64,000 nt of DNA, from positions 194,649 through 258,648 of the forward strand of contig VGJV01000001.1 of assembly GCA_016867315.1 (NCBI GenBank), read 5' to 3'. Shown one piece after another: positions 6,516 through 63,310 of this stretch (the first letter of the stretch is position 1; the number at the start of each line of letters is the position of its first letter). This DNA comes from Candidatus Liptonbacteria bacterium. Its GTDB lineage: Bacteria; Patescibacteriota; Minisyncoccia; UBA6257; 2-01-FULL-56-20. Under the pieces are notes generated by a model. That model saw only the letters and a list, made by a program, of their open reading frames with translations. It did not search any database and was not told where the DNA came from. The position numbers and the translations under genes are program-made.

Positions 6516-6782
6516 GCCGCGGTAGCTCAGTGGCAGAGCATTCGCCTGAACTCTTCGGGCACCGATTCAGTAATGAGTCGGTAAAAACTGGGTGAATTCG
6601 GGGGAACTTCGCAAGAACAATCCCGAGCCAAGCTCCAAACTTGGAGAAGGTGTAGAGACTATCCCTTCGGGGAGTACTCTGAAAAATCAGAGGAAGCGCC
6701 CAGCTCCGCGCAAGCGGATGATGATATAGTCCAACTTCGCAGGAAGAGCGATTGGTCGTCAGTTCGATTCTGACCCGCGGCA
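6516..6782 (+). tRNA. tRNA-Phe (anticodon GAA) interrupted in the anticodon loop by a ~195-nt group I intron
   Basis: Exon 1 (6516-~6547): GCCGCGG-TA-GCTC-AGTGGCA-GAGC-A-TTCGC-CT. Exon 2 (~6743-6782): GAAGA-GCGAT-TGGTC-GTCAG-TTCGATT-CTGAC-CCGCGGC-A. Spliced anticodon loop is CTGAAGA. Acceptor, D, anticodon and T stems all pair. Confidence 0.7.
6548..6742 (+). ncRNA. group I self-splicing intron within tRNA-Phe
   Basis: Core elements are present: P-like GTGAATTCGGGGGAAC (6591-6607), Q-like AATCCCGAGCC (6619-6629), R 'GTAGAGACTA' (6652-6661) and S 'GATATAGTCC' (6723-6732) forming P7. The internal guide GGGC (6557-6560) pairs with exon GCCT, giving a U.G at the proposed 5' splice site. The candidate omega-G is at 6742. 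Exact exon boundaries are uncertain by a few nt. Confidence 0.65.
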
Positions 6783-6859
6783 CATTATATAAAGCAAAAC
6801 ACCTCCCCCGGGAGGTGTTTTGCTTTCCAGACTACTTGCTACCCGCTACGTGCTACTCG

Positions 6860-7957
6860 CTACTTCTTCAGTTTAAGCATTATCCGCTTTTCTTCCGGCT
6901 TCACGGCCTCTACCACGAATTTCTGCATGTCTCCTACGGGAAGTTTAGCTTTCATGGCATCTGCAGATTCGAATTCAGCGATGTGCACGGTGCCTTGAAT
7001 GCCCTGGCCCAAGTCGATAATCGCACCGAAGGGATTCAATTTATAAATTTTTCCTTCCACTTCTTCTCCTTTCTTGTAACGGTCGCCCAAAGTCGTCCAT
7101 GGGTCTTGCTGGAGCGCTTTCAAAGAGAGGAACACGCGGCCATCTTCGCGGATATCGATGATTTTTACTTTCACTGTTTCATCTACTTTAAGCACTTCTT
7201 TCGGATTATCTACTATATAGTGCGCGAGTTCGGAGATGTGGATCAGCCCTTCGAGCTGCGGTTCATCGACGAACCGGACGAATGCACCGAAGTCGGCGAT
7301 CCCCGTTACCAATCCCTGAATTTCGTCGCCCGCTTTGTATTTCTTCAAAAGTTCTTTTACGTTCCCGCTTACTACTTCACGTTCGGAAATAATGAACTTA
7401 TTGTGGCGCGGGTTTACGTCGATCACCTTTACCGTGAGCTCCTCGCCGATGAATTTCTTGAGTTCGTCAAATATTTTCTGGCGGTCGCCGTCTTCCACGC
7501 GCGGATAGTGCTCCTGAGAGAGTTGGGAGACAGGCAAAAAAGCTTTGAGATCGAGCAGGGTCGCGGTAAGGCCGCCGGCGTTCGCTCCTACAATTTTTAC
7601 TTTCACTAATTCTCCGGATTCCATGAGTTCTTTGGCTTGCTGCCAGAGCCGTTCTTTGCCGGCTTCGGCGAGGGAAAGCTCGATGTAGCCGTCTTCGGAT
7701 TCCAGGGTTTTGATTTTCGCGAGCACGGTGCCCCCGGGCTGAAGCTCTTTTACAATTTCTTTCGCATTCAAGAGTTCCACTCCCCATACGATACCCGTTC
7801 CGAATTTCCCTAAATCAAAAAACACCTTCCGGTCAGTTTTCCGGAGGAGTTTTACTTCCACCACGCTTCCTTCTTTAGGCCATTCGCCCGAAGGTATGGC
7901 CGCTTTCAAAGCGTCCAAGAGGGTGGTTTGCGAACTCTTTACTGAGGCATCTGCCAT
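6860..7957 (-). CDS. rpsA: 30S ribosomal protein S1 (four S1 domains)
   Basis: Repeated S1-domain signatures (for example 'GTVHIAEFE', 'GLIHISELA', 'GTGIVWGVEL'); 365 aa. The ORF 6752..7609(+) on the opposite strand is spurious. Confidence 0.85.
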   Translation of the reverse strand: MADASVKSSQTTLLDALKAAIPSGEWPKEGSVVEVKLLRKTDRKVFFDLGKFGTGIVWGVELLNAKEIVKELQPGGTVLAKIKTLESEDGYIELSLAEAGKERLWQQAKELMESGELVKVKIVGANAGGLTATLLDLKAFLPVSQLSQEHYPRVEDGDRQKIFDELKKFIGEELTVKVIDVNPRHNKFIISEREVVSGNVKELLKKYKAGDEIQGLVTGIADFGAFVRFVDEPQLEGLIHISELAHYIVDNPKEVLKVDETVKVKIIDIREDGRVFLSLKALQQDPWTTLGDRYKKGEEVEGKIYKLNPFGAIIDLGQGIQGTVHIAEFESADAMKAKLPVGDMQKFVVEAVKPEEKRIMLKLKK

Positions 7958-8613: not shown

Positions 8614-8646
8614 ACAGCAAGTAGCAGGTAGCATGTAGCAAGTAGT
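8614..8646. repeat. short tandem repeat array (GTAGCA/AGCAAG units) upstream of small gene 8653..8964
   Basis: AGCAAGTAGCAGGTAGCATGTAGCAAGTAG. Confidence 0.5.
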
Positions 8647-8964: not shown

Positions 8965-8996
8965 CTACATAGCAAAGAGCGAATAGCATATAGCGA
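8961..8996. repeat. short tandem repeat array (TAGCA-type) downstream of the small gene
   Basis: GTAGCTACATAGCAAAGAGCGAATAGCATATAGCGA. Confidence 0.5.
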
Positions 8997-9007
8997 AACC
9001 AAAATTT

Positions 9008-11452
9008 ATGTCGAACGTAGAAAAAAGAGAAATAACTAACGAATTAAGCGAGTCCTATCTCGACTATGCAATGTCGGTGATCGTGGCGCGTGCCCTTCCG
9101 GACGTGAGGGACGGATTGAAGCCTGTGCATCGTCGTGTGCTTTGGACAATGTGGTCCATTGGGCTCACGCATCTCGCGAAATTTAGGAAGTCGGCGAATG
9201 TGGTGGGAGAGACCATGGCCAAATACCATCCGCACGGAGATGTGGCGATTTACGACACCTTGGTGCGTATGGCCCAGGATTTCTCGCTCCGATACCCCTT
9301 GGTCAAAGGCCAAGGAAACTTCGGGTCGGTGGACGGCGATGCGGCCGCCGCTATGAGGTATACCGAATCTCGGCTTTCGAAGATCGCGGAGGAACTCCTG
9401 CTCGATATCGAAAAGGAAACGGTGGATTGGGCGCCGAACTACGATGCGACTCGGGAAGAACCAAAAGTATTTCCCGCCAAACTCCCGAACCTCCTGGTGA
9501 ACGGCACATTGGGAATCGCGGTTGGAATGGCGACGAGTATTCCGCCGCACAACCTGACCGAAGTGCTCGATGCCACGCTTCTGCTTGCCGATAAGCCTTC
9601 GGCGACGACTGAGGAACTTCTGGAGTTCGTCAAAGGCCCGGACTTTCCCACGGGAGGAGTGATGTACGACCGCGCCGCGATTCGCCAAGCCTATTCTACG
9701 GGTCGCGGGTCGGTCACGACGCGGGCCAAAGCGGAAGTCGTGGATCGGAAGAAGTCCGGCGAGAGCGGGCGTGGAGGACAAGATATCGTGATCACCGAAA
9801 TTCCCTATCAAGTGAACAAGTCGGAGTTAGTGAAGCAGATTGCGATACTTGTTACCGATAAAAAGGTAGAGGGCATCCGCGACCTTCGCGATGAATCCGG
9901 CCGGGAGGGGATGCGGATCGTGGTGGAGCTCAAAAACGATGCCGCGCCTCAGAAAGTGCTCAATCAACTTTATCGTCACTCCGATCTTCAGAAAGATTTT
10001 CACTTTAATATGATCGCGCTCCGCGACGGGATTCAGCCCGAACTTTTCTCTTTGAAAGAGATGCTTATGGCGTATCTTGAGCACCGCAAAGAAGTGGTAC
10101 GCCGGAGGACGCAATTTGATTTGAAACGAGCCGAAGAGCGGGCGCACATTTTGGAAGGGCTCGCGACAGCGCTCGACTCCATTGATAAGGTGATCTCGAC
10201 GATCCGGAAATCTAAGGACCGCGAAGATGCGCACGCGAATTTGATGAAACTTTTCAAACTTACGGATGTGCAGGCGACGGCAATTTTGGAAATGAAGCTG
10301 CAAACTTTGGCGGCGCTCGAACGGCAGAAGATCGAAGCCGAACTCAAAGAAAAGCGCGCGCTTATCAAAGAACTGAATCTTATCTTGAAGAGTCCGGCAC
10401 GAATTATGGGGGTGATCAAAGACGAGCTCAAAGACCTCAAAGAAAAGTATGGCGATCGGCGCCGCACGCAGGTGGTGGCCTCAGCCTTGAAGGCTATGAC
10501 CGATGAAGACCTCGTGCCTGAAGAGGATGCGATCGTGACTTTCTCTTCGAGCGGCTATGTGAAGCGCGTACCGCCGGATTCCTTCCGGATGCAGCGGCGT
10601 GGAGGCAAGGGGCTTATCGGGTCGGATGTCGCCGAAGAAGATTTTCTTTCCCATTTCTTCCACGCGAATACGCACGATAAAATTTTATTCTTTACCGATC
10701 GCGGGCGGGTATTCGAGACGCGGGCATATGAAATTCCCGCAGCGAGCCGGACGGCCAAAGGCAAAGCGATTCACAATTTCCTCGAGCTTCCCACGGATGA
10801 GAATATCAGCGCGATTGTGAATCTTCCTGCTAAAAGCTTAAAGCTTAACGCTCAAAGCTATTTATTTATGACCACTAAAGACGGGATGGTCAAGAAAACG
10901 CCTCTCAAAGATTTTGAAAATATTCGGCGCACCGGCATCATCGCCATCTCTTTGAAGAAAGGGGACATGCTCAAATGGGTGCGAGCTTCCACCGGGAACG
11001 ATCAAGTGATTCTGGTGACGGAACAAGGTCAATCCATTCGGTTTGCCGAATCTCAAGTGCGATCTATGGGGCGTGGCGCGGCAGGGGTGCGCGGGATTCG
11101 ATTGCGCAGCGGAGACTCGGTGGCGGGGTGTGACTTGGTGAAGAAGGGAGATACGGCACAACTTTTGGTCGTGATGGCAAACGGTTTTGGGAAACGCACG
11201 CCGCTCAAGGAATATAAAGTGCAGGGCCGCGGCGGATCGGGAATCAAGACGGCAAATGTGACGACCAAGACCGGGAAAGTGGTGGCGTCGCTCGTGATTG
11301 GAGAAGAGACTGAGCTTTTGGCACTTTCTGCTAAGGGGCAAGTGATTCGGACGGATTTAGGAAGTGTGCGTCAGACCGGCCGGTCTGCGCAGGGGGTGCG
11401 CATTATGAATATGAACCAGGGAGATAGGGTGGCGGGATTGGTGGTGATTTAG
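9008..11452 (+). CDS. gyrA: DNA gyrase subunit A
   Basis: N-terminal '[27 protein letters not shown]', an active-site tyrosine region, the GyrA-box 'QRRGGKG' and six C-terminal beta-pinwheel repeats; 814 aa. Confidence 0.95.
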
Positions 11453-17935: not shown

Positions 17936-18175
17936 ACTGCCATCCTTTCTTTTCTATCTAATCTAAGTTGATATTGACTTTTCAATGAAACGAAACGATG
18001 GCAGTCCCACAATGAGTGCGGGATAGGCTCACTTCACAAACAGGTGAAGCGACCCTAGAACCCGCTCAAAGAGCAAGCTGCCACGTGGTTACATCTTACC
18101 ATAGATCTTCTTCAAAGTCAAGATGTGTACAGTAAGCATAATTACTAATTATTAATTACCAATTACAATGACTGC

Positions 18176-19451: not shown

Positions 19452-19479
19452 ACTTATAACTTATAACTTATGACTTATA
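19452..19479. repeat. 4 x heptamer tandem repeat ACTTATA(A/G) overlapping the start codon and -10-like boxes of paralog 1
   Basis: ACTTATAACTTATAACTTATGACTTATA. The ATG at 19470 lies inside unit 3, and TATAAC boxes lie 2 and 9 nt upstream. Confidence 0.6.
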
Positions 19480-20084
19480 ACGAGGGGCGTACGAAAAGAC
19501 TCGCGATTGTCATATTAGGATTGGCCTTTTTTTCACTTGCGTACTTCGCCCACGCGCTCGATCTGAATTATCTCGGGGCGGATGCGGTGAGGGAGCAGGT
19601 GGCGGCGCATCCGAGTTGGAAAACACCTGGGGTTTATGAGGCCACGCTTGGAGGAGATTCGGTGGATTTTATTCTGACGGATTCGCCTCCGGCGCAACCC
19701 AAGTCTTCGGCGCAGACAGGCACGAATAGAGGCTTAGGATTTCCTTACTGGCCTTCGGAACTATTACCACTATTGCCTTGCACAGGAACCAACTGCGTTA
19801 ATTTTTGCCAGCTCCTTACCTTTTTCCAGCGGTTGATTTATTTTGGAATGACTTTGGCGGTGGAAATCATTGCGCCGGTGTTTCTTATCTGGGGGATGTT
19901 CATGATTCTCATATCAGCGGGATCGAGTGAACGACTCGGTCAAGGCAAGACGATACTCACTACTACTATAGTAGGGGTAGTCCTTGCGCTTGGAGCGTTT
20001 CTTATCGTGAGCACTTTGCTTTGGCTTTTGGGGAACCCAGCAAGTGGAGGAGTGAGTTGGCCTAATGTCGCCTGCGTGATTTAA
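19470..20084 (+). CDS. paralog 1 of secreted two-TM small-protein family (VirB2/TrbC-pilin-like topology), with extended N-terminal domain
   Basis: Signal peptide, then ~110-aa Cys-containing region, then TM1-'SAGSSERLGQGKT'-TM2 shared with the three downstream paralogs. Confidence 0.5.
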   Translation: MTYNEGRTKRLAIVILGLAFFSLAYFAHALDLNYLGADAVREQVAAHPSWKTPGVYEATLGGDSVDFILTDSPPAQPKSSAQTGTNRGLGFPYWPSELLPLLPCTGTNCVNFCQLLTFFQRLIYFGMTLAVEIIAPVFLIWGMFMILISAGSSERLGQGKTILTTTIVGVVLALGAFLIVSTLLWLLGNPASGGVSWPNVACVI

Positions 20085-24422: not shown

Positions 24423-24995
24423 ATGGCAACAACCGATCATTACTCGAACCAGCAGCGTGTGGGCATTTTCATTGATGTCCAGAATTTGTATCATTCCGCG
24501 AAAAATCTTTACCGCGGCCGGGTGAATTATCGCGAGCTCGTGCGCCACTTGGTGGGGGATCGGCAACTTATCCGCACGTTGGGATACGTGGTGCGGAGTG
24601 AAGGGATCATCGACACTTTACCTTTAAAGGCTAATCGTCCCGATGTGCCCGAAGGCGCCCATCTTTCTTCGGAGGCGGCATTTTTCGAAGCGCTCGAAAA
24701 AGCAGGAATCGAATTGCGGCTTAAAGATATTCAAGTATACGCGGGAGGCTCTAAGAAGGCAGACTGGGATGTGGGGATGGCCGTGGACGCCATTCGCATG
24801 GCCTCGTTTCTCGATGTGATCATTTTGGTAACGGGAGACGGCGATTTTATTCCCCTCGTCGATTATTTGAAATGGGGGATGGGAAGACTTGTCGAGGTCG
24901 CCGCATTTCGTCGAAGCGCATCGTCCAAGTTGCAGGAGGCAGCGGATCGGTTTATCAACGTCGAAGAAATTCCCAAAATAATCATTCGTAAATAG
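24423..24995 (+). CDS. NYN-domain (LabA-like, PIN-like) ribonuclease-family protein
   Basis: 'VGIFIDVQNLYHSAKNLY...DVIILVTGDGDFIPLVDYLK' is the NYN/DUF88 signature. The track ORF starts at 24351; ATG 24423 is preferred. Confidence 0.65.
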   Translation: MATTDHYSNQQRVGIFIDVQNLYHSAKNLYRGRVNYRELVRHLVGDRQLIRTLGYVVRSEGIIDTLPLKANRPDVPEGAHLSSEAAFFEALEKAGIELRLKDIQVYAGGSKKADWDVGMAVDAIRMASFLDVIILVTGDGDFIPLVDYLKWGMGRLVEVAAFRRSASSKLQEAADRFINVEEIPKIIIRK

Positions 24996-25073
24996 CTTTT
25001 AGCTTCGAGCTTTAAGCTGTAAGTAAAGAGTCAAACACTTAAACCTAAAAACTAGAACCTTAAAGCTACTCAT

Positions 25074-28364: not shown

Positions 28365-28394
28365 GCCTCGGCGTAGGTTCACATGATTCGGGGA

Positions 28395-28460
28395 TGCGGT
28401 TTTCGGCTTGTTGCCGAAACCGCTATGCTCTCACGCCGCCGCGTTCCGAGAATCCCCTCA
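28395..28460. repeat. structured intergenic repeat element, copy A
   Basis: GCGGTTTTCGGCTTGTTGCCGAAACCGC hairpin, then TATGCTCTCACGCCGCCGCGTTCCGAGAATCCCCTC; 80-90% identical to copy B at 63128. Confidence 0.55.
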
Positions 28461-36731: not shown

Positions 36732-36770
36732 AACGGAAATGTTGCTCACCCTATTCCTTGCGGGGACGTT

Positions 36771-36840
36771 GTCTCCGACCGACTGTCGGAGCAACTATAC
36801 TCTCGGGCCGTCGCCCTGTGAGAACCCCCGCGCGGAACAG
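36771..36840. repeat. structured intergenic repeat element, copy F
   Basis: CTCCGACCGACTGTCGGAG hairpin, then CAACTATACTCTCGGGCCGTCGCCCTGTGAGAACCCCCGCG. Confidence 0.5.
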
Positions 36841-36880: not shown

Positions 36881-37801
36881 ATGATTTTTAAAAGAGCTGG
36901 GGTAGTCGGGATAGTGGGAGCCGCGGCATTTCTTTTGGGCTCGGGAGCGAGTTATCTTTTTGCGCAGACTACTGCGGGATGGACTGCGCCTACTGCCACT
37001 CCGCCAGGAGGAAATACGGAGGCGCCGGTGAATGTAGGACCTTTTCTTCAGCATAAGAATGGAGGGTTGAGTGTGGGGGGGAATGGGCAGCCACTCAATG
37101 CCAGTGGAACTTTGAGTGTGGTGGGGGATACAAAATTGGGCAAAGATTTGGAAGTTATCGGAAGAGTAAAAGTAGGGCAATCGCTCATAGCTCCGATCAT
37201 ATCTGCGGGACCGCTTTCGCCCGAAGCGCCGCTTTCGTCAGTGGCTTTGACTGTGGGAGGGAAGGTGCAGATTCGAGGAGGGAATCCTCAATCCGGGTAT
37301 GTACTTACTGCCACGGGAACAGATGGTACCACGGAGTGGAAGGCTGCTCCTATCACTAAAATTGTCCCCGGGAGCAACGTGACGGTTAGCCCGGCTTCCG
37401 GAATGGGAGAAGTGACTATTAATGCCATAGGAGGAGTAACCAAGCTGCGAGCGGGATCAAATATTTCTATCGATCAGGAAACTGGGGAAGTTACGGTGAG
37501 CGCTTCGTTTTCAGATAATACGCCTTCTTGGGTGAATAACATTCCATATCCGCCGGGAGGTGGGAAGATTCTGGTATCGAATTCAGAGGGGAGTGCGTCT
37601 TGGCAGGATCCGCTTTCGCTTCCAGAGCTGCGCCCGCGTGCTGCTACTGGCACTGTGTGTGGAGGAGGAACGGACGGGGCAGGGCAGGGATTGGGATCTT
37701 TACCTACTGTGTGGGGAAGTTGTGCATCTCAACGGACGCCGAATTGTGTAAATGCAACTTACCAGCGCGTAGGAGGCAGCGGATTTATTTGTGTGCGATA
37801 A
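36881..37801 (+). CDS. secreted beta-rich protein, possibly tail-fibre/adhesin-like (start at MIFKRAG)
   Basis: Signal peptide 'VVGIVGAAAFLLGSGASYLFAQ', repetitive G/V/T/S-rich beta strands and a Cys-rich C-terminus. The track ORF starts at 36758 inside repeat copy F, which is implausible. Confidence 0.4.
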   Translation: MIFKRAGVVGIVGAAAFLLGSGASYLFAQTTAGWTAPTATPPGGNTEAPVNVGPFLQHKNGGLSVGGNGQPLNASGTLSVVGDTKLGKDLEVIGRVKVGQSLIAPIISAGPLSPEAPLSSVALTVGGKVQIRGGNPQSGYVLTATGTDGTTEWKAAPITKIVPGSNVTVSPASGMGEVTINAIGGVTKLRAGSNISIDQETGEVTVSASFSDNTPSWVNNIPYPPGGGKILVSNSEGSASWQDPLSLPELRPRAATGTVCGGGTDGAGQGLGSLPTVWGSCASQRTPNCVNATYQRVGGSGFICVR

Positions 37802-37804
37802 TCG

Positions 37805-38461
37805 TTATTCTAAAGTACTGGTTGCAGTGCTGGGAGCAGTGTAAAGTATTTGCCTTACAACTTTCGAAGTGCCGCCGAGAAATCGGCGGCCTTCTATTTC
37901 TATGGTGTTCAAACCTTCGTGGAGTACTACGCGCTTTTCCCATTCTCCATCTTTTCCTACCGGAGTTTCTTCTTGATTTACTAATACTTTATCGCCATAG
38001 CGAAGGGAGCCGTGTACTACGATTTCCGGAGTCTCCGAGGGAGTAATTTCGCGTGGGGGATATTCCACGAGAAGAAGAGGGGTGCCGAATATGGCCGCAA
38101 AACGAGCTACGAGATACACGATGAGAATCAGAGCGATGCCCCCTATCCAGTACGGCGTGGCAGGGCTTTCTTTGAAGCGGTTTTTGGGAAGAGCGTCGGT
38201 GCTCCCGGAGGTTTTTACGGCACCTTCGGATTTAAGTTCGTTCCACCAGGCTTCGCCATCGAAATCGAGAACATTTCCTAATTTGTGGAGATAGCCATGT
38301 ACGTATGGAGCCGGGGGGAGAGCTTCAAAATTCCCGGCCATAAGGTGTTCCAAGTGAGCAATCGAAATGTTGGAGGTTTGGGAGAGTTTTTCCAAGTTCC
38401 AGCCCTTTTCCCGGAGGCGGTCATGGAGAAACTGGCCAAATTGTTGGGAATTTTCGTTCAT
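37805..38461 (-). CDS. RodZ-like protein (N-terminal HTH, TM, C-terminal domain)
   Basis: XRE-type HTH 'LREKGWNLEKLSQTSNISIAHLEHLMAGNFEALP', then TM 'WIGGIALILIVYLVARFAAIF'; architecture as in RodZ. Confidence 0.45.
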   Translation of the reverse strand: MNENSQQFGQFLHDRLREKGWNLEKLSQTSNISIAHLEHLMAGNFEALPPAPYVHGYLHKLGNVLDFDGEAWWNELKSEGAVKTSGSTDALPKNRFKESPATPYWIGGIALILIVYLVARFAAIFGTPLLLVEYPPREITPSETPEIVVHGSLRYGDKVLVNQEETPVGKDGEWEKRVVLHEGLNTIEIEGRRFLGGTSKVVRQILYTAPSTATSTLE

Positions 38462-38475
38462 AAACGTATTAGGTG

Positions 38476-38545
38476 AATAGGATTAGTAATTAGGTAATTG
38501 AGTAATTGGTAATTGGACTCGTAATAGTTAATGGATTACCTAATT
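38476..38545. repeat. tandem array of GTAATT(A/G)G octamer-like units (left flank of four-helix-bundle gene)
   Basis: TAGGATTAGTAATTAGGTAATTGAGTAATTGGTAATTGG ... GGATTACCTAATTACGAGG. Confidence 0.55.
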
Positions 38546-38908
38546 ACGAGGGTTAACCTGTTCTTTTGTTGTTCGGATGTAGTTGTTTAATTTGTGGTGG
38601 AGTGATTCTAACCCTTCAAGCAGTATTTTGTGTGTTTCCATCGGAATGCGTTTTCTTTCGAATAGTACATGTGTCCAGTAGATTGATTCAAGTAGCGAGC
38701 CACGTGCGTTATAGTTGAATTTATTTTTGTCGAGATAGTGGAAACGCCCGAATCCTTCAGCAATATTTGCTCCAATTGAGTCTATTGCGGAGATCCATTG
38801 ATCTCCCATTACCTTTTTGTCTTGCCAATTCAGTTTCTCATACTCTTCCCATATAAGTCTAGAAATCTCTCGAGAGAGTTTATATACCTCGAGATCCTCA
38901 AGTTTCAT
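38540..38908 (-). CDS. four-helix-bundle protein (23S rRNA intervening-sequence protein / Avd-like family)
   Basis: 'LEVYKLSREISRLIWE...DQWISAIDSIGANIAEGFGRF' matches the TIGR02436-type four-helix-bundle signature; 122 aa. Confidence 0.7.
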   Translation of the reverse strand: MKLEDLEVYKLSREISRLIWEEYEKLNWQDKKVMGDQWISAIDSIGANIAEGFGRFHYLDKNKFNYNARGSLLESIYWTHVLFERKRIPMETHKILLEGLESLHHKLNNYIRTTKEQVNPRN

Positions 38909-38942
38909 AATTACCCAATTACTAATTACTTAATTACGTAAT
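38908..38942. repeat. inverted-orientation array of CCAATTAC/TAATTAC units (right flank of four-helix-bundle gene)
   Basis: ATAATTACCCAATTACTAATTACTTAATTACGTAAT is the reverse complement of the left-flank units. Confidence 0.55.
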
Positions 38943-41078
38943 ACTTTCGTTATTCTGCGGAAACTTCTCAAAATAGACTTCGCGGGGCTTGGCGCCATCG
39001 CCGGGACCGATAAGTCCCTGAGCTTCCATGAGATCCAAGAGGCGGGCGGCGCGGGCATAACCAACCTTCAGCCTCCGCTGGAGGAGCGAGGCAGAGGCGC
39101 GTTTGGATTCAAATACTACCGCGGTAGCTTCGTCGAGCATTTCATCATCGTCCCCTTCTGTCGCGTAGGAGTCGAAATCTACGCTGTTGTCGATCGGGGC
39201 GCTCGGACCTTCTTTGGGGCCTACTTGAATGTCTGCCGGGGGCTCCACTTCGTTATTGTCTCGGATAAAATCGGCGACCGCATTAATTTCCGCTTCGGTT
39301 ACATAGCAACCCTGGATACGTTTAGGTTTCGAAAGTTCTGCAGAGACAAAGAGTAGATCGCCACCACCTAAAAGTTTTTCCGCACCGGAAGTATCGAGAA
39401 TAGTGCGAGAGTCAATCTGGCTTGCTACTTGGAGAGCGACTCGGCTCGTAATGTTCGCCTTGATAAGGCCGGTGATTACTTCTACTGAGGGCCGCTGGGT
39501 GGAGAGGACAAGGTGAATGCCTGTGGCTCGAGCCATTTGGGCGAGACGTACAATCGACCCTTCTACTTCTTTGCCGTAAGAAGTCATGAGGTCGGCAAGT
39601 TCATCTACGACGATTACCAGGTAAGGCAAGGCTTCTTCCTTATGAGAGTTGTTGTAGCTCTTGATGTCTCGGGAGCCTCCTTTGAGGAGCAGATCATAGC
39701 GGCGATCCATTTCGCTTATTGCCCATCGGAATACTCCTATCGCCTTTTTATTTTCAGTGATCACAGGGGAAATGAGGTGGGGAATATGCTCATAAATAGA
39801 AAGCTCCACTCGTTTCGGGTCGATCATAATCATTTTCAAGGTAGCAGGAGAGTTTTTGAAGAGGAGCGATAGAATAAGCGAATGGATAGTGACCGATTTT
39901 CCCGAACCTGTAGCTCCCGCAATCAAGAGGTGGGGCATCTTTTCGATATTTCCGAAGATGGGTTCGCCGGTTACATCTCTTCCGATTGCAAAAGAAAGCA
40001 TGCCTGAGGACTGGAAATCCGGATATCCCATGAGGCTGCTCAAACGGACAAGCGCAGCGGCTTTATTCGGTACCTCGATACCCACCAGAGATTTGCCGGG
40101 AATAGGAGCTTCGATGCGGATGGGATGGGCGGCGAGGGCTAAGGCGAGATCTTGGTTTAAGGCTACGATTCTCGAGAGTTTTACACCTTCTGCGGGTTTT
40201 AGGGTATAGCGGGTAACTTTAGGCCCAATGTTGATTTCGCCCATTTCGACGGAGATGCCGAACGATTCCAAGGTGCGTTTGATTATATTCGCATTGGCGC
40301 GAAGGTCGCCTGTAGTCGGTTTTTCGGTGCCGGAAGAAAGGAGGGAAAGGGGCGGAGGAGTGTAGTTTATATGCACCACTTGTTTTACAGGTTTGCCTTT
40401 GGGAGCGGGCATTCTCGCGGGTTCTGCGATCACAATGTCCGCATCCTCCTCATCTTCGGCATCAGCTTTAAGCTTTAAACTTTTAGCTTTAAGTTTTTCA
40501 TTCGAATCCTCATCCCTATTCTCATTTTCCTCCTCTTCTTCCGGTTCGATGATTGCATCCCCAACCTCGATCTCTTTTTTAGTTTTTGAACGGAAACGAG
40601 AAAAGTCCAAAGGGGCATTGAGGGCGATCAGGATTCCTACAATAAGGAATACGCTATTCAAAATAGTGGCGGCAAGATTTCCGAAAGGAACGCGTAACGA
40701 GCCGAAGAGAAGTCCCACCCATCCTCCCTTGCCTGGAAGGGCAATTTCAATAAGGCCGAGAAGGGTGAGAAAAGAAAGGCTGACTCCGATAGAGGTCGTC
40801 GTTACAATGCGCGGACCTTCTGCAAAAAGAAGAATTCCTGCGGCAAAGAGCAGCGTAGCCGGGAGGGCCACATATCCCGCGCCTAAAAGGGCTTCAAGGC
40901 CTTTATAAATGTAGATTCCCGCCGGGCCGGCTTTGCCAAATTGCGCGAGGACAAGCACCAATGCGAGACCGATAAATACGATCGCGACGATGCTTTTCTT
41001 GGTCGCGGAGTGGAGGCGTGATTCTTCGGAGAGGTTCCGTGGGAAGTCGTTGCCGTTGCGTTTGGAGCTTTTAGCCAT
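38934..41078 (-). CDS. ftsK: DNA translocase FtsK/SpoIIIE
   Basis: N-terminal TM helices, an acidic linker and a C-terminal motor with Walker A 'GATGSGKSVTIHSLILSLL' and 'LVIVVDELADLM'. Confidence 0.9.
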   Translation of the reverse strand: MAKSSKRNGNDFPRNLSEESRLHSATKKSIVAIVFIGLALVLVLAQFGKAGPAGIYIYKGLEALLGAGYVALPATLLFAAGILLFAEGPRIVTTTSIGVSLSFLTLLGLIEIALPGKGGWVGLLFGSLRVPFGNLAATILNSVFLIVGILIALNAPLDFSRFRSKTKKEIEVGDAIIEPEEEEENENRDEDSNEKLKAKSLKLKADAEDEEDADIVIAEPARMPAPKGKPVKQVVHINYTPPPLSLLSSGTEKPTTGDLRANANIIKRTLESFGISVEMGEINIGPKVTRYTLKPAEGVKLSRIVALNQDLALALAAHPIRIEAPIPGKSLVGIEVPNKAAALVRLSSLMGYPDFQSSGMLSFAIGRDVTGEPIFGNIEKMPHLLIAGATGSGKSVTIHSLILSLLFKNSPATLKMIMIDPKRVELSIYEHIPHLISPVITENKKAIGVFRWAISEMDRRYDLLLKGGSRDIKSYNNSHKEEALPYLVIVVDELADLMTSYGKEVEGSIVRLAQMARATGIHLVLSTQRPSVEVITGLIKANITSRVALQVASQIDSRTILDTSGAEKLLGGGDLLFVSAELSKPKRIQGCYVTEAEINAVADFIRDNNEVEPPADIQVGPKEGPSAPIDNSVDFDSYATEGDDDEMLDEATAVVFESKRASASLLQRRLKVGYARAARLLDLMEAQGLIGPGDGAKPREVYFEKFPQNNESIT

Positions 41079-41181
41079 GAGAAGTGGAAGCGCTTATATA
41101 TTACTATTCCTTTTTTGTCCGAGCTAGTCGTTCGCTTGGACTCATGCGGGGTTCATAGAGACTTGCGATATAATAGGGGGA

Positions 41182-42615
41182 ATGAAAGTAAATCCGCACA
41201 TATTCCGAGGGTATGATTTGCGCGGTTTGGTCGAGAAAGATCTAACTCCCGAAATCGTAGAACATATCGGAAAAGCTTTAGGCACGTATCTCAAGCGCCG
41301 GGGCATACGGGAACTGGTGGTAGGGCGGGATTCACGTGCGACGGGGCCCGCATATAGCGAGGCTCTTATTCGAGGACTTACTTGGACCGGGGCGGATGTC
41401 ATCGATATAGGGATGACGCTCGTGGGGACGTTTTATTGGGCTCAACACTTTTTAGGACGGCGTGGGGGGGCTTTTGTTTCGGCTTCGCATAATCCACCCG
41501 AATATAACGGGTTCAAATTTGCCAATGATTTTTCAGAGACGCTTGTAAGCGATGGCATGCAGGAGTTGCGGCGAATAGTGGAGGAAGAGGATTACGAGCA
41601 GGGGGAGGCTCCGGGGAAATTTTGCCTTCAAGATGTTCGAGAAGAATATTATGCGGATATTCTTTCGCGAGTGAAGCTTGAGGGAGCGCGGCGCGTAGTC
41701 GTGGATCCCACGGCTTCCACTGCCGGTGCGTTGGTCCCCGAGCTTTTGCGGCGCGCGGGATGCGAAGTAATTGAAAAAAACTGCGAAGTGGATTCTTCTT
41801 TCCCATTGGGGGTGGCCGACCCCACGGCAACAGACATTGCAGAGCGGTTGCGCGACGAGGTGCTTGAAGCGAACGCGGATATCGGATTTTCTTATGATGC
41901 TGATGGAGACAGGATCGGGATTGTCGATGAGAAGGGAGGGATCATATGGAACGATGTGCTCGTCGCCCTTTTTGCTCAAGATGTTCTTCAAGAACATCCG
42001 GGTGCGACGATCATGTATAACACGTTGTGTTCGAGGGTGGTGGAAGAAACTATCCGCAATGCCGGAGGGACGCCTTTCATGTGGAGGACGGGACATTCCT
42101 TCTTAAAGAAAAAGAATCAGGAAGTGGGGGCGGCATTTATCGGGGAGCTTTCCGGACATTTCTTTTTCTCCAAAGATTTTTATAACCACGATGATGGTAT
42201 GTATTCCACGATGCGGTTATTGCGCTATCTTACTCGGACGAACCAGACCCTCTCGGAGGCAGTAGCGAAGCTTCCTCAGTATGTTTCGAGTCCCGAGATA
42301 AAAGTGTTTTGCGCGGACGATAAAAAAGCCGAACTTGTCAAAAAAGCCAGTCCGCAACTTCGGAAAGACTTTCCCCAGGCGCAAGTCATCGATGATGAGC
42401 GAGCGGGGGACGGAATCCGCATGGATCTTCCAGATGCGATGCTTGTGGTGCGATATTCGCAGAACGGTCCCTATCTCACCATCAAATTCGAAGGTAAAAC
42501 CGAAGTGCAATATAACGAACTAAAAGGGTACCTTTCCCAATTTCTTAGAAGTTTTGGAGAGATTGATTGGAAGTCGAAGATCAATGTGAATGTAGAGGCG
42601 CTTGGGGTGGTCTAG
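41182..42615 (+). CDS. phosphoglucomutase/phosphomannomutase (alpha-D-phosphohexomutase family)
   Basis: Active-site 'SASHNPPEYNGFKF', metal-binding 'DADGDR' and sugar-binding 'GELSGH' motifs. Confidence 0.85.
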   Translation: MKVNPHIFRGYDLRGLVEKDLTPEIVEHIGKALGTYLKRRGIRELVVGRDSRATGPAYSEALIRGLTWTGADVIDIGMTLVGTFYWAQHFLGRRGGAFVSASHNPPEYNGFKFANDFSETLVSDGMQELRRIVEEEDYEQGEAPGKFCLQDVREEYYADILSRVKLEGARRVVVDPTASTAGALVPELLRRAGCEVIEKNCEVDSSFPLGVADPTATDIAERLRDEVLEANADIGFSYDADGDRIGIVDEKGGIIWNDVLVALFAQDVLQEHPGATIMYNTLCSRVVEETIRNAGGTPFMWRTGHSFLKKKNQEVGAAFIGELSGHFFFSKDFYNHDDGMYSTMRLLRYLTRTNQTLSEAVAKLPQYVSSPEIKVFCADDKKAELVKKASPQLRKDFPQAQVIDDERAGDGIRMDLPDAMLVVRYSQNGPYLTIKFEGKTEVQYNELKGYLSQFLRSFGEIDWKSKINVNVEALGVV

Positions 42616-43874: not shown

Positions 43875-43912
43875 TTGAGTTCAAAGACAAGGTGCGTTAC
43901 TTTCTAATTGCT

Positions 43913-45202
43913 ATGAAGCGAATTTACTTAGATTTTGCGGCTACTACTCCGCTTGACCCGGCGGTGGGGCGGGCAATGGAGCCGTATTTATATGAAGAGT
44001 TTGGGAATCCAAGTTCACTCCATTCTTTCGGGCAGAAGGCGATTGCAGCAATTGATAAGGCGCGGGAGATGTTCGCTCGAGAGCTTAATGCCAATTTTCG
44101 AGAAATTATTTTTACCGGATCTGCGACCGAGGCCAACAATCTGGGGTTCAGAGGGGTTATAAAAGGAATCAGGAAACAGGAATTAGGAATTAGGCAAAAG
44201 AAATTCACTCCTCGTATCATTATTTCGGCGATCGAACATGAATCCATTCGAGAAACGGCGAAAGACCTGGAACGCGAAGGAGTGGAAGTGATCGAAATTC
44301 CGGTAAGTCGCGAGGGGTTGGTAGATGTTCAGAAATTGAAGAACGCACTTAATGAGCGGACGGTTTTGGTTTCGGTCATGTATGCAAATAACGAGATAGG
44401 GACAGTGCAGCCGATTTCTGCAATCGGCAAAATCATAACCGATTTTAGAAAGCAAATAGCGGATAGCAAAGAGCCAAGAGCGCCATTGGCTATTGGCCAT
44501 TGGCCAATTTTTCACACCGACGCCGCGCAGGCTTTTCAATTTCTGGATTGCGATGTCCAATTTCTTGGAGTGGACCTTATGACTCTTTCGGCGCATAAGA
44601 TTTACGGGCCGAAAGGAGTGGGCGCGCTCTACATGCGGCGAATTGTGAATAGTGAATTGCGAAGTGTGAATAATTCTCAACTCCCAACTCCCACTTCTCA
44701 ATTCTTGAGCCCTGTGATTACCGGGGGTGGACAGGAATTTGGTTTGCGTTCGGGTACCGAGAATGTGGCAGAGATTGTGGGATTTGGCCATGCGGCACGT
44801 CGCGCAGGAGAGCTGCGTGTTAGAGAAGGAGCGCGGCTTGGAGGATTGTGCGAAAAGTTATGGAAAGGAATTATCAAAAAATATCCTCGCGCTACTTTAA
44901 ATGGTGTTTCTGCAAAGCGCTTCACTCGACATTCATCCCTTGCATTGCCTAATATTCTTAGCGTGCGGTTTTCTGATCTGGAGGCCGAAGCGCTCCTTGT
45001 CCGGCTTGATATCATGGGGCTCGCCGCTTCCGCTGGACCTGCATGCAGCAGTCGTTCACTCGAAGTTTCTAACGTTCTCCAAGCAATTGGGCTTACTCCT
45101 AAGCAGGCGCGGGAAACTATACGGTTTAGCCTTGGCCGCACTACAAAGGAGAAAGATGTTGCGCACGCTCTTTCCCTTTTGACTCAGGTTTTTCGGAGAT
45201 AG
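43913..45202 (+). CDS. iscS: cysteine desulfurase (IscS/NifS family; start at MKRIYLD)
   Basis: 'IYLDFAATTPLDP', the PLP-lysine region 'SAHKIYGPKGVGALYMRR' and an active-site Cys loop 'SAGPACSS'. It carries lineage-specific insertions, including an in-frame heptamer-repeat-encoded 'GIRKQELGIRQKK'. Confidence 0.85.
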   Translation: MKRIYLDFAATTPLDPAVGRAMEPYLYEEFGNPSSLHSFGQKAIAAIDKAREMFARELNANFREIIFTGSATEANNLGFRGVIKGIRKQELGIRQKKFTPRIIISAIEHESIRETAKDLEREGVEVIEIPVSREGLVDVQKLKNALNERTVLVSVMYANNEIGTVQPISAIGKIITDFRKQIADSKEPRAPLAIGHWPIFHTDAAQAFQFLDCDVQFLGVDLMTLSAHKIYGPKGVGALYMRRIVNSELRSVNNSQLPTPTSQFLSPVITGGGQEFGLRSGTENVAEIVGFGHAARRAGELRVREGARLGGLCEKLWKGIIKKYPRATLNGVSAKRFTRHSSLALPNILSVRFSDLEAEALLVRLDIMGLAASAGPACSSRSLEVSNVLQAIGLTPKQARETIRFSLGRTTKEKDVAHALSLLTQVFRR

Positions 45203-60886: not shown

Positions 60887-60932
60887 AGATAGAAAGTAGA
60901 AAATAGAAAATAGAAAGTAGAAAATAGTAGAA
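60887..60932. repeat. tandem AGAAAATAGAAAGT-type repeat array immediately upstream of a leaderless promoter
   Basis: AGATAGAAAGTAGAAAATAGAAAATAGAAAGTAGAAAATAGTAGAAG, followed by TATAAT (60945-60950) and ATG at 60957. Confidence 0.5.
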
Positions 60933-63092: not shown

Positions 63093-63127
63093 AGTATAGC
63101 AACGCTCGTCCTATTCCTCGCGGAGAC

Positions 63128-63190
63128 GCGGTTTCCGACTTGCTGCCGGAACCGCTATGCTCTCGTGCCGCCGCACTGCGAGAATCTCCG
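63128..63190. repeat. structured intergenic repeat element, copy B
   Basis: GCGGTTTCCGACTTGCTGCCGGAACCGC hairpin, then TATGCTCTCGTGCCGCCGCACTGCGAGAATCTCC. Confidence 0.55.
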
Positions 63191-63267
63191 CAAGAAACAA
63201 GACTTCGCTCTCCCACTGCATTATATGGAGCTCCCTTCTTTTTGGAGCTTGGCCGCTCCTTTCATTG

Positions 63268-63310
63268 GGATTTTTTTAGAAATTAGGAATTAGAGCTTAG
63301 AAATTAGGGT
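63268..63310. repeat. tandem AGAAATTAGG/AGGAATTAG-type repeat array upstream of pilM
   Basis: TTAGAAATTAGGAATTAGAGCTTAGAAATTAGGG. The same heptamer family occurs at 590-618 and in-frame inside iscS (44150-44200). Confidence 0.5.

Follow-up and report, generated by a model that had tools for sequence, protein, structure and literature searches.

Analysis of a 64,000-nt stretch of the genome of Candidatus Liptonbacteria bacterium (GenBank assembly GCA_016867315.1, contig VGJV01000001.1, positions 194,649 to 258,648; hereafter, the window) identified a compact cassette of about 460 nt (window positions 38476-38942) that consists of a G-type tandem array, an open reading frame (ORF) for a four-helix-bundle (4HB) protein, and a C-type tandem array complementary to the first. 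The cassette occupies the intercistronic spacer of a pair of cell-division genes, ftsK and a rodZ-like gene, with all three genes on the minus strand. The same bracket of inverted arrays surrounds most of the related 4HB genes in Patescibacteria as well as genes of the unrelated GxxExxY family, and the potential of the two arms to pair is retained through complete turnover of the unit sequence. The explanation that we favor, at a probability of roughly one half, is that this is a cassette of the rRNA intervening sequence (IVS) type that resides outside rRNA and is co-transcribed with ftsK, its arms forming an RNA helix of approximately 36 bp. We found no description of such a gene-in-hairpin layout outside ribosomal RNA genes: within the limits of a literature search that reached few subscription journals, there was no bracket outside rRNA, no arms built of tandem units and no GxxExxY counterpart.

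Organization of the cassette

In the sense strand, the 5' arm of the cassette (38909-38937, minus strand; 29 nt) reads GTAATTAA GTAATTA GTAATTGG GTAATT and contains G and no C; the 3' arm (38486-38514, minus strand; 29 nt), its reverse complement, reads AATTACC AATTACTC AATTACCT AATTAC and contains C and no G. Each arm comprises four GTAATTNN units, and the two pair with each other in the predicted folds. The 4HB gene between them (38540-38908, minus strand; 122 aa) belongs to the family PF05635 (23S_rRNA_IVP; TIGR02436). The 5' arm ends at the base directly before the ATG of this gene, and its first unit contains the stop codon of ftsK (TAA, 38934-38936); on the other side, the ATG of the rodZ-like gene lies 24 nt beyond the 3' arm. 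The upstream host gene, ftsK (38934-41078, minus strand), encodes FtsK_alpha, FtsK_SpoIIIE and FtsK_gamma domains, and the downstream, rodZ-like gene (37805-38461, minus strand) encodes HTH_25 and Glucodextran_B domains; both are co-directional with the 4HB gene.

Tandem Repeats Finder delineates a left array at 38482-38516 (period 8, with the consensus unit printed as 7 nt; 4.7 copies) and a right array at 38908-38942 (period 8, 4.5 copies). The resulting inverted repeat (38489-38516 and 38915-38942; 28 nt, 89% complementary) ranks first in the window among those with arms up to 700 nt apart, which bears out the initial annotation of this locus as a gene flanked by inverted GTAATT-type arrays that form imperfect inverted repeats of about 30 bp. 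Across the window, GTAATT and AATTAC are about as frequent as chance would predict (17-20 times each, compared to 14 expected), but 4+4 of them cluster at the cassette. The G+C content is 0.38 across the element and approximately 0.50 in the surroundings. Over 569 nt of the element, eight contigs assembled independently from different samples show no difference, which rules out an assembly artefact; by the same token, no polymorphism in the number of units is visible among these eight contigs.

In both the minimum free energy (MFE) and the centroid folds of the 481-nt sense RNA, the arms are joined by 36 long-range pairs, and the folds contain this long-range helix in the window and in the orthologous cassette of the nearest relative (locus L009) alike (z=-2.6). 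A local hairpin is nested within the bracket and spans the 4HB stop codon (38518-38550, minus strand; -13.3 kcal/mol for a 77-nt fold, z=-4.95). On the plus strand, CTCGTAAT (38518-38525) pairs with ATTACGAG (38543-38550) over 8 bp, and the hairpin includes an extra G-type unit (GTAATTAG) within the last 4HB codons. The segment of 26 nt between the 4HB stop codon and the 3' arm (the arm begins 25 nt after the stop) is missing from the L009 cassette, where the 3' arm begins directly at the stop codon. A scan of positions 37700-41300 for promoter and terminator consensus sequences produced no match within the element, and an Rfam scan of the window detected no family at the element and no rRNA anywhere in the window.

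The bracket in other genomes

A scan of one genome per species yielded 51 loci that encode relatives of the 4HB protein (loci are denoted L with a number). In nearly every locus from Patescibacteria, a tandem array with a period of 7-8, sometimes 10-11, and with 3-9 units, ends 0-10 nt before the 4HB ATG, and the reverse-complement array begins at or shortly past the stop codon. At an inverted-repeat (arm-to-arm alignment) score threshold of 30 (the 99th percentile of shuffled sequences is 28), 75% of the 4HB genes at 32 Patescibacteria loci are bracketed, compared to 5 of the 98 other ORFs at these loci (Mann-Whitney p=1e-15 for the scores). The five exceptions are three PF05635 genes of other subfamilies, one GxxExxY gene and one plain palindrome, so that once the further cassettes are set aside, a bracket is found around only about 1% of the other ORFs. 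The arms are matched specifically to each other: the median score within a locus is 38, compared to a mean of 18 across loci. Likewise, MFE folds of the sense RNA contain at least 15 flank-to-flank pairs in 29 of the 32 loci, with a mean of 31 compared to 16 in a swapped-flank control.

The same layout is found in metagenome-assembled genomes (MAGs) labelled as Bacteroidetes, Chloroflexota, Dehalococcoidales, Actinomycetota, Thermodesulfovibrionales and Brocadia, and in many unrelated genomic contexts. A distant homologue encoded on a Pseudanabaena plasmid (35% identity) has no flanking arrays; hence the bracket is typical of this subfamily rather than of PF05635 as a whole. The motif GTAAT/ATTAC is present in about half of the 4HB arms. 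In several cases, a second 4HB cassette is located within 1-2.5 kb of the first one on the same contig (L012:5561-5920, L025:1906-2271, L031:955-1308 on the minus strand, and L054:691-1206), each with its own array unit and with a protein 26-60% identical to that of the neighbor; among all 4HB paralogues within one MAG, identity ranges from 26 to 73%.

Evolution of the arms

The unit sequences vary widely between loci (for example, GTAATTNG, GTAACTTG, GATATTAG, AGAAATT, GGAGAAA and GAGATAAAATT), and despite these differences, the two arms within each locus remain complementary, unit by unit. Two comparisons capture this change in progress. The window and L009 carry the cassette at the same site (87% identity between the FtsK proteins and 74% between the 4HB proteins), and GTAATT has given way to GTAAC(T) in units 2 and 4 of both arms, in mirror order. 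L025 and L026 share the upstream gene (74% identical), and the unit has changed from AGAAATT to GGAGAAA, again in both arms. The number of units differs as well, namely, 3 in L013 and 9 in L016. Mirrored unit order was detected in 19 of 25 loci, in a test that is biased because the arms were first picked by alignment.

The arms also show a consistent polarity, with G exceeding C in the 5' arm in 38 of 45 loci and C exceeding G in the 3' arm in 39 of 45. Because this polarity reads alike from either strand, it belongs to the bracket itself and does not depend on the orientation of the gene. The two apparent exceptions, L023 and L050, contain nested arrays, with the G-type partner located further upstream.

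The four-helix-bundle protein

The protein encoded in the cassette is a clear member of the PF05635/TIGR02436 (S23p) family (PF05635, E=2e-20, 73.3 bits with a cut-off of 33.8; TIGR02436, 'four helix bundle protein', E=1e-19, 70.5 bits with a cut-off of 24). An AlphaFold2 model built from 32 homologues consists of helices 2-24, 27-52, 57-83 and 89-115, with a confidence (pLDDT) of 91. Foldseek retrieves the structures 2GSC (Xcc0516) and 2RLD (BT_0352) with template modeling (TM) scores of 0.84-0.90 and root-mean-square deviations of 1.0-1.9, followed by Avd, a protein of diversity-generating retroelements (DGR; 4DWL and 8UB7), with TM scores of about 0.78 and 7-9% identity. A profile search also matches 2RLD and 2GSC, both of which were deposited with five chains, and the NCBIfam model of Avd does not match the window protein. 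Structures of PF05635/S23p proteins have been solved since 2006; to our knowledge, no function has been assigned to the family outside DGR Avd. By analogy with these structural relatives, among which Xcc0516 has been described as a homopentamer (PMC4990558), the 4HB protein is probably a nucleic-acid-binding homopentamer.

Purifying selection on the 4HB protein is strong: the 32 homologues all agree at 28 alignment columns, and the dN/dS ratio for the 4HB genes of L013 and L016 is 0.035. The subfamily is large, with 3,557 clusters (at 50% identity) matching its profile. In a search of 5.8 billion proteins, the closest homologue other than the protein itself was 75% identical.

In three MAGs, the 4HB ORF contains in-frame TGA codons at the positions of the invariant Trp19 and Trp77 (L009:3229-3231, codon 20 in L018, and codons 20 and 78 in L041), so that all four of these stops fall on invariant Trp codons. 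L041 appears to be TGA-recoded, the longest ORF being 194 aa under code 11 and 360 aa under code 4. L009 does not, its ftsK having 707 codons without a TGA. The 4HB ORFs of L009 and L018 could be pseudogenes, or else a leaky UGA could be read as Trp.

GxxExxY cassettes

The second family found within such brackets, GxxExxY (TIGR04256, PF13366), belongs to the PD-(D/E)XK superfamily, that is, has a nuclease fold, and is unrelated to the 4HB proteins. Bracketed GxxExxY genes are present on contigs of the Patescibacteria type (L024:4129-4557, L015:4037-4450 and L065-L144). A metagenome scan for this family yielded 80 loci, and of the 73 with both flanks available, 59% score at least 30. The arm units are ACGCGGAT or ACGCTGAT, i.e. 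of the ACGC(G/T)GAT type, and the outer termini TAGAAGC...GCTTCTA are found in 21 of 72 GxxExxY loci compared to 0 of 45 4HB loci.

Operon setting and history of the site

In 43 of 44 loci, the gene upstream of the 4HB gene points in the same direction, compared to a baseline fraction of 0.77 at these loci (p=1e-4). The spacers to the upstream gene are about 50 nt long and consist mostly of the array itself. The co-orientation bias, the short spacers and the lack of a promoter consensus jointly suggest read-through transcription from the upstream gene.

At the ftsK-rodZ site, the cassette is present in the window and in L009, and four relatives (L060-L063; FtsK proteins 82-86% identical) have no 4HB gene, with spacers of 83-221 nt. 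In the spacer of L062 (L062:3349-3500), inverted arrays of the GCGAATA type flank an insert rich in hairpins (-66.9 kcal/mol, z=-8.5); this filler is a bracket of the GxxExxY type without the gene. The spacer of L060 (L060:3280-3500) is strongly structured (z=-4.6), and those of L061 and L063 show no significant structure. The ftsK-rodZ spacer thus seems to be a persistent site for hairpin-type fillers. Relatives lacking the gene at this position do exist, but none among L060-L063 presents a clean empty site because other fillers occupy these spacers. Cargo-less or array-only versions were found, in addition to the L062 spacer, upstream in L023 and at L036:2198-2273.

No direct repeat that could represent a target-site duplication is seen outside the arms. 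A candidate for such a duplication, ATTACGTAA at the end of ftsK, was rejected because it is the ancestral 3' end of ftsK, present in L060 and L063. The window encodes no transposase, and the sole recombinase is the product of an XerC/D-like gene 15 kb away. Searches of the window with tblastn and hidden Markov models (HMM) against the six-frame translation detected no 4HB gene other than this one; no relative was found among IMG/VR viral contigs; and PHROGs and PADLOC returned nothing above noise. An identical 4HB protein is always encountered in one and the same context. Copies within one genome carry different arm units, AGAAATT and AAGTRGT in L025, and GTAATTTG and GATTAAA in L012. Nothing points to recent or active movement of the cassette. 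Accordingly, of the miniature mobile cassette originally proposed, the 'cassette' part is supported, in that the gene and the arrays behave as a unit with patchy occupancy, and the 'mobile' part only indirectly. The description of the family as multicopy is accurate insofar as several old copies can occur in one genome; the window itself holds a single copy, and none of the copies is near-identical to it. The comparison did not, in any case, reveal a single-copy gene whose flanks are kept in all relatives as a usual promoter or terminator.

Heptamer arrays elsewhere in the window and in relatives

Tandem arrays are not confined to the bracket. A solo array of TAATTAC x4, with neither a partner arm nor cargo, is located at 18139-18166 (plus strand), 10 nt upstream of a gene for a solute-binding protein; the gene-less AATTAC array previously placed at 18135-18172 is therefore real. 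More generally, period-7 arrays abound in short intergenic spacers, with a large variety of units, and often end just before a start codon. Besides the cassette, there are at least 13 in the window, the intergenic ones including 588-606, 8616-8645, 8969-8997, 19452-19481, 24993-25018, 60889-60927 and 63276-63307, and 97 were counted away from the 4HB flanks in related loci (L009-L058; 254 kb). At least 8 different units are represented within 64 kb, some of them recurrently (TAGAAAW and AAGCTTW three times each, CTACNNG twice). Only one dispersed array of the window, that at 18139-18166, shares the unit of the cassette, and the other 12 or so have different units. Among the 97 distant arrays, 32 share at least 30% of their 6-mers with a cassette's unit, a figure that comes without a control.

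Period-7 arrays are found within coding sequences as well: three in iscS, which encodes a cysteine desulfurase (ORF 43892-45202; arrays at 44164-44205, 44482-44506 and 44640-44705), one in gyrA (10829-10859) and one in the ftsK linker (40464-40497). Compared to a solved homologue (9wep), the protein has in-frame insertions of 9, 8 and 18 aa at the three iscS arrays. In the third of these, a G-type array precedes a C-type array that is roughly complementary to it; we did not count it as a cargo-less cassette because the hairpin is not significantly stable (z=-0.9). The arrays at 6832-6864 (CTACNNG) and 8616-8645 (CNNGTAG), 1.75 kb apart, are reverse complements of each other; this pair was rejected as a second cassette given that it encloses housekeeping genes, one rpsA-like and one for an MBL-fold protein, and has the opposite polarity, C-type first and then G-type.

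Arrays of this kind have precedents. Intergenic heptanucleotide repeats include the short tandemly repeated repetitive (STRR) sequences of cyanobacteria. The TAACTGA repeats of Beggiatoaceae and cyanobacteria are tandem heptamers in 2-6 copies, mostly intergenic and in the forward orientation, that end a few bases before the start codon; their function is unknown, a post-transcriptional role has been proposed, and 4HB genes receive no mention in the report on these repeats (PMC4679880). The arrays in the window are similarly intergenic tandem heptamers that typically end just upstream of start codons. The differences are that many unit sequences coexist in one genome here whereas a single heptamer dominates there, and that the arrays of the cassette are paired, inverted and tied to one gene family.

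A proposed IVS-type cassette outside rRNA and the alternatives

The closest precedent for a scheme of read-through, helix formation and RNase III processing is the IVS in the 23S rRNA gene of Coxiella burnetii. This IVS is 428 nt long (428-444 nt across Coxiella), with a 28-bp terminal stem that encloses the S23p ORF and is itself the site of the RNase III cut; S23p, according to the authors, appears not to be synthesized in vivo (PMC4990558). The resemblance of our cassette to the 23S rRNA IVSs of Coxiella burnetii and Leptospira extends to the protein family (PF05635/S23p), the size (about 460 nt here compared to 428-444 nt), the position of the ORF in the loop of a terminal inverted-repeat stem (28-40 bp in the IVSs), the embedding in and probable transcription with a host transcription unit, and the sporadic distribution among relatives (PMC4990558). 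The comparison with rRNA IVS elements made in the initial annotation was therefore apt: the Coxiella element is built similarly. Nevertheless, the cassette resides in the ftsK-rodZ mRNA spacer and not in helix 9, 25 or 45 of 23S rRNA; not being in rRNA, it lacks the location by which IVSs are defined. Its arms consist of tandem units of 7-8 nt whose sequence turns over between loci, and its ORF is intact and under purifying selection, in contrast to the apparently unsynthesized S23p of Coxiella.

Under the favored explanation, the cassette would have no promoter of its own and would be transcribed by read-through from ftsK, as suggested by the bias in orientation, by a spacer of 25 nt and by the scan for promoters, which gave no match. 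The arms have the potential to pair, and this potential is maintained in evolution; we infer that they pair in the transcript, where the ORF would be sealed off by an interrupted helix of some 36 bp that terminates at the AUG. By analogy with Coxiella, RNase III probably cuts this helix; the cassette RNA would be excised without damage to the flanking cistrons, and a 4HB mRNA with a short leader would result. The arms would change fast through repeat slippage, both changing together, and the cassette, which is old, would have been vertically inherited since the split between the lineages of the window and L009, with gain or loss at any given site being rare. A search for rnc in the 64-kb window gave no match, the window being too small for this result to be informative.

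Several observations weigh against this explanation. If the arms were maintained as RNA, mismatches tolerated as G-U pairs in the sense strand could be expected to prevail, and this strand signature is absent: there are 52 mismatches that are G-U in the sense RNA, 59 that are G-U only in the antisense, and 143 transversions, and the duplex and MFE energies of the sense and antisense strands are equal. The complementarity of the arms could therefore be maintained at the DNA level. Furthermore, the arm motifs are specific to the cargo, a pattern that would not be predicted if just any stem sufficed, even if co-inheritance of arms and gene could account for it. Unpaired period-7 arrays are common elsewhere in these genomes; processing by RNase III is drawn from analogy; and an Rfam scan of 20 related loci found no rRNA context for any of them, which weakens the direct link to true IVSs. 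In particular, the missing RNA-strand signature and the cargo-specific motifs keep alive the alternatives in which the arrays act in DNA or as operators.

One such alternative, which we consider possible, if rather unlikely, is a DNA-level mobile element whose inverted arrays serve as terminal repeats or as hairpin or cruciform ends, recognized as a structure or through short motifs by an activity associated with recombination or replication, perhaps that of the cargo protein itself, 4HB or GxxExxY. Insertion would take place in operon spacers, and derivatives reduced to arrays would stay behind or spread. The equivalence of the strands with respect to G-U pairs fits this scheme, and so do the sharing of the bracket by two unrelated families of small cargo proteins, one of them with a nuclease fold, the conserved outer termini of the GxxExxY cassettes (21/72 loci, compared to 0/45 for 4HB), the presence or absence at the same site among relatives together with the gene-less GCGAATA-type bracket of L062, the array blocks that form in-frame insertions in iscS, the G+C content below that of the flanks, and the several copies per genome. 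However, there is neither a target-site duplication nor a clean empty site, no transposase in the window (only the XerC/D-like recombinase, 15 kb off), no carriage by phages in the IMG/VR search, and no near-identical copy anywhere (the best match is 75% identical, and paralogues are 26-73% identical). The arm units differ between copies in one genome (L025, L012), so that a single sequence-specific enzyme cannot serve all copies, and the strong co-orientation with the upstream gene is unexpected for an autonomous DNA transposon. Transposons with terminal inverted repeats and miniature inverted-repeat transposable elements likewise have inverted termini around a small cargo as well as cargo-less versions, but the cassette lacks a transposase (within the 64-kb window), a target-site duplication, shared termini and recent copies. 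In the system of repetitive extragenic palindromes (REP), their REPIN arrangements and the associated RAYT genes, a short repeat flanks a small gene in inverted copies, related repeats are dispersed in intergenic spacers, and palindromic elements are embedded in operons; RAYT is an HUH/Y1 (IS200/IS605-like) transposase, and REP is one conserved palindrome. Our cassette resembles this arrangement in the inverted flanks around the gene and in the dispersed TAATTAC array at 18139-18166; it differs in that the cargo is PF05635 (or GxxExxY) and not an HUH/Y1 transposase, and in that the repeats are tandem arrays of variable units, with its own unit for each cassette in a genome.

Somewhat more doubtful is an autoregulatory unit, in which the putative 4HB pentamer would bind the tandem units of its own transcript, in the manner of the TRAP ring, or of DNA, and the complementary array, as an anti-array in competition with the protein, would tune translation at the adjacent AUG. 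The approximate match between the 4-5 units per arm and the five chains in 2GSC and 2RLD is suggestive in this respect, as are the position of the 5' array 0-10 nt from the AUG in most loci, the cargo-specific arm motifs, and the involvement of Avd, the next-closest fold, in a DGR ribonucleoprotein (8UB7). Heptamer arrays before start codons have, moreover, been proposed as post-transcriptional signals in Beggiatoaceae and cyanobacteria (PMC4679880). Yet the number of units ranges from 3 to more than 9, with periods between 7 and 11, proteins sharing 60-75% identity have widely different unit sequences, the unrelated GxxExxY fold is found within the same architecture, and protein binding does not require that the arms be complementary unit by unit in mirror image.

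Equally tentative is a broader conjecture, according to which there would be an undescribed class of elements defined by structure, with co-evolving inverted tandem arrays as their ends, and the 4HB and GxxExxY cassettes would be those members that carry a gene, the cargo acting on the arrays and the cargo-less arrays being non-autonomous products. That the cargo would bind the arrays or, in the case of the PD-(D/E)XK fold, cut them, in parallel with REPINs and RAYTs, seems to us an improbable proposition. No less conjecturally, the in-frame insertions in iscS, gyrA and ftsK would count among these products, together with the fillers found in the 'empty' ftsK-rodZ sites.

Chance, that is, slippage-prone intergenic microsatellites that happen to be inverted and share no function, is strongly disfavored. 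Period-7 arrays are indeed abundant (at least 13 others in the window and 97 in 254 kb), and the number of units differs between orthologues (3 in L013 and 9 in L016), but the bracket is specific to 4HB and GxxExxY genes (75%, compared to about 1% of other ORFs), the cassette is the top inverted repeat of the window, and the complementarity of the arms outlives complete turnover of the unit sequence.

Finally, a DGR remnant with the gene as Avd can be practically dismissed: the link to Avd and DGR drawn in the initial annotation holds only at the level of the four-helix-bundle fold (TM about 0.78 and 7-9% identity to a protein that forms a ribonucleoprotein with reverse transcriptase in DGRs; 4DWL, 8UB7), 2GSC and 2RLD are much closer, the TIGR02436 model matches whereas the Avd HMM does not, Pfam scans reveal no reverse transcriptase (RVT) domain in 33 window ORFs (including nearly all of at least 280 aa) or in the gene calls within 6 kb of the 4HB gene, and the direct repeats of at least 40 nt in the window (two tRNAs, a 72-nt element and a repeat inside rpsA) include none near the gene and none of the template repeat/variable repeat type, in agreement with the original observation that the window contains neither a reverse transcriptase nor a variable repeat.

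Other features of the window

A group I intron (Rfam RF00028 at 6538-6753, 50.9 bits) apparently interrupts the anticodon loop of a tRNA-Phe(GAA)-like gene (6517-6787, plus strand), the exons of which are GCCGCGGTAGCTCAGTGGCAGAGCATTCGCCTGAA and GAGCGATTGGTCGTCAGTTCGATTCTGACCCGCGGCA; ARAGORN made no call, and the tRNA was recognized by eye. A structured element of about 75 nt is present in three copies that are 64-82% identical (28389-28460, 36761-36832 and 63121-63192, plus strand). RNAalifold predicts 32 pairs, 12 of which are kept through changes on both sides, and there is no match to any Rfam family; this element is a candidate for an undescribed RNA motif or a small repeat element.

Implications

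Taken alone, the locus described here is modest. The wider pattern is more notable: a specific, co-evolving bracket that, across phyla, surrounds two enigmatic families of small proteins, in genomes where heptamer arrays abound and are found in frame even within essential genes. The bracket gives PF05635/S23p the status of a defined element with testable parts, namely, the arms, the cargo and the host transcript, in place of the vague label of a multicopy, IVS-associated family. The question of the rRNA IVSs, which is 30 years old, is thereby extended to protein-coding operons and tied to the unexplained heptamer arrays of several bacterial phyla. For the annotation of Patescibacteria, the cassette and the in-frame array insertions call for caution in gene calling. 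The arms themselves are short, portable, self-complementary modules that might serve as devices for RNA processing or insulation. Should the 4HB and GxxExxY cassettes belong to a class of structure-defined elements, this would provide both a function for the IVS-protein family and an origin for the heptamer arrays of the STRR and TAACTGA types.

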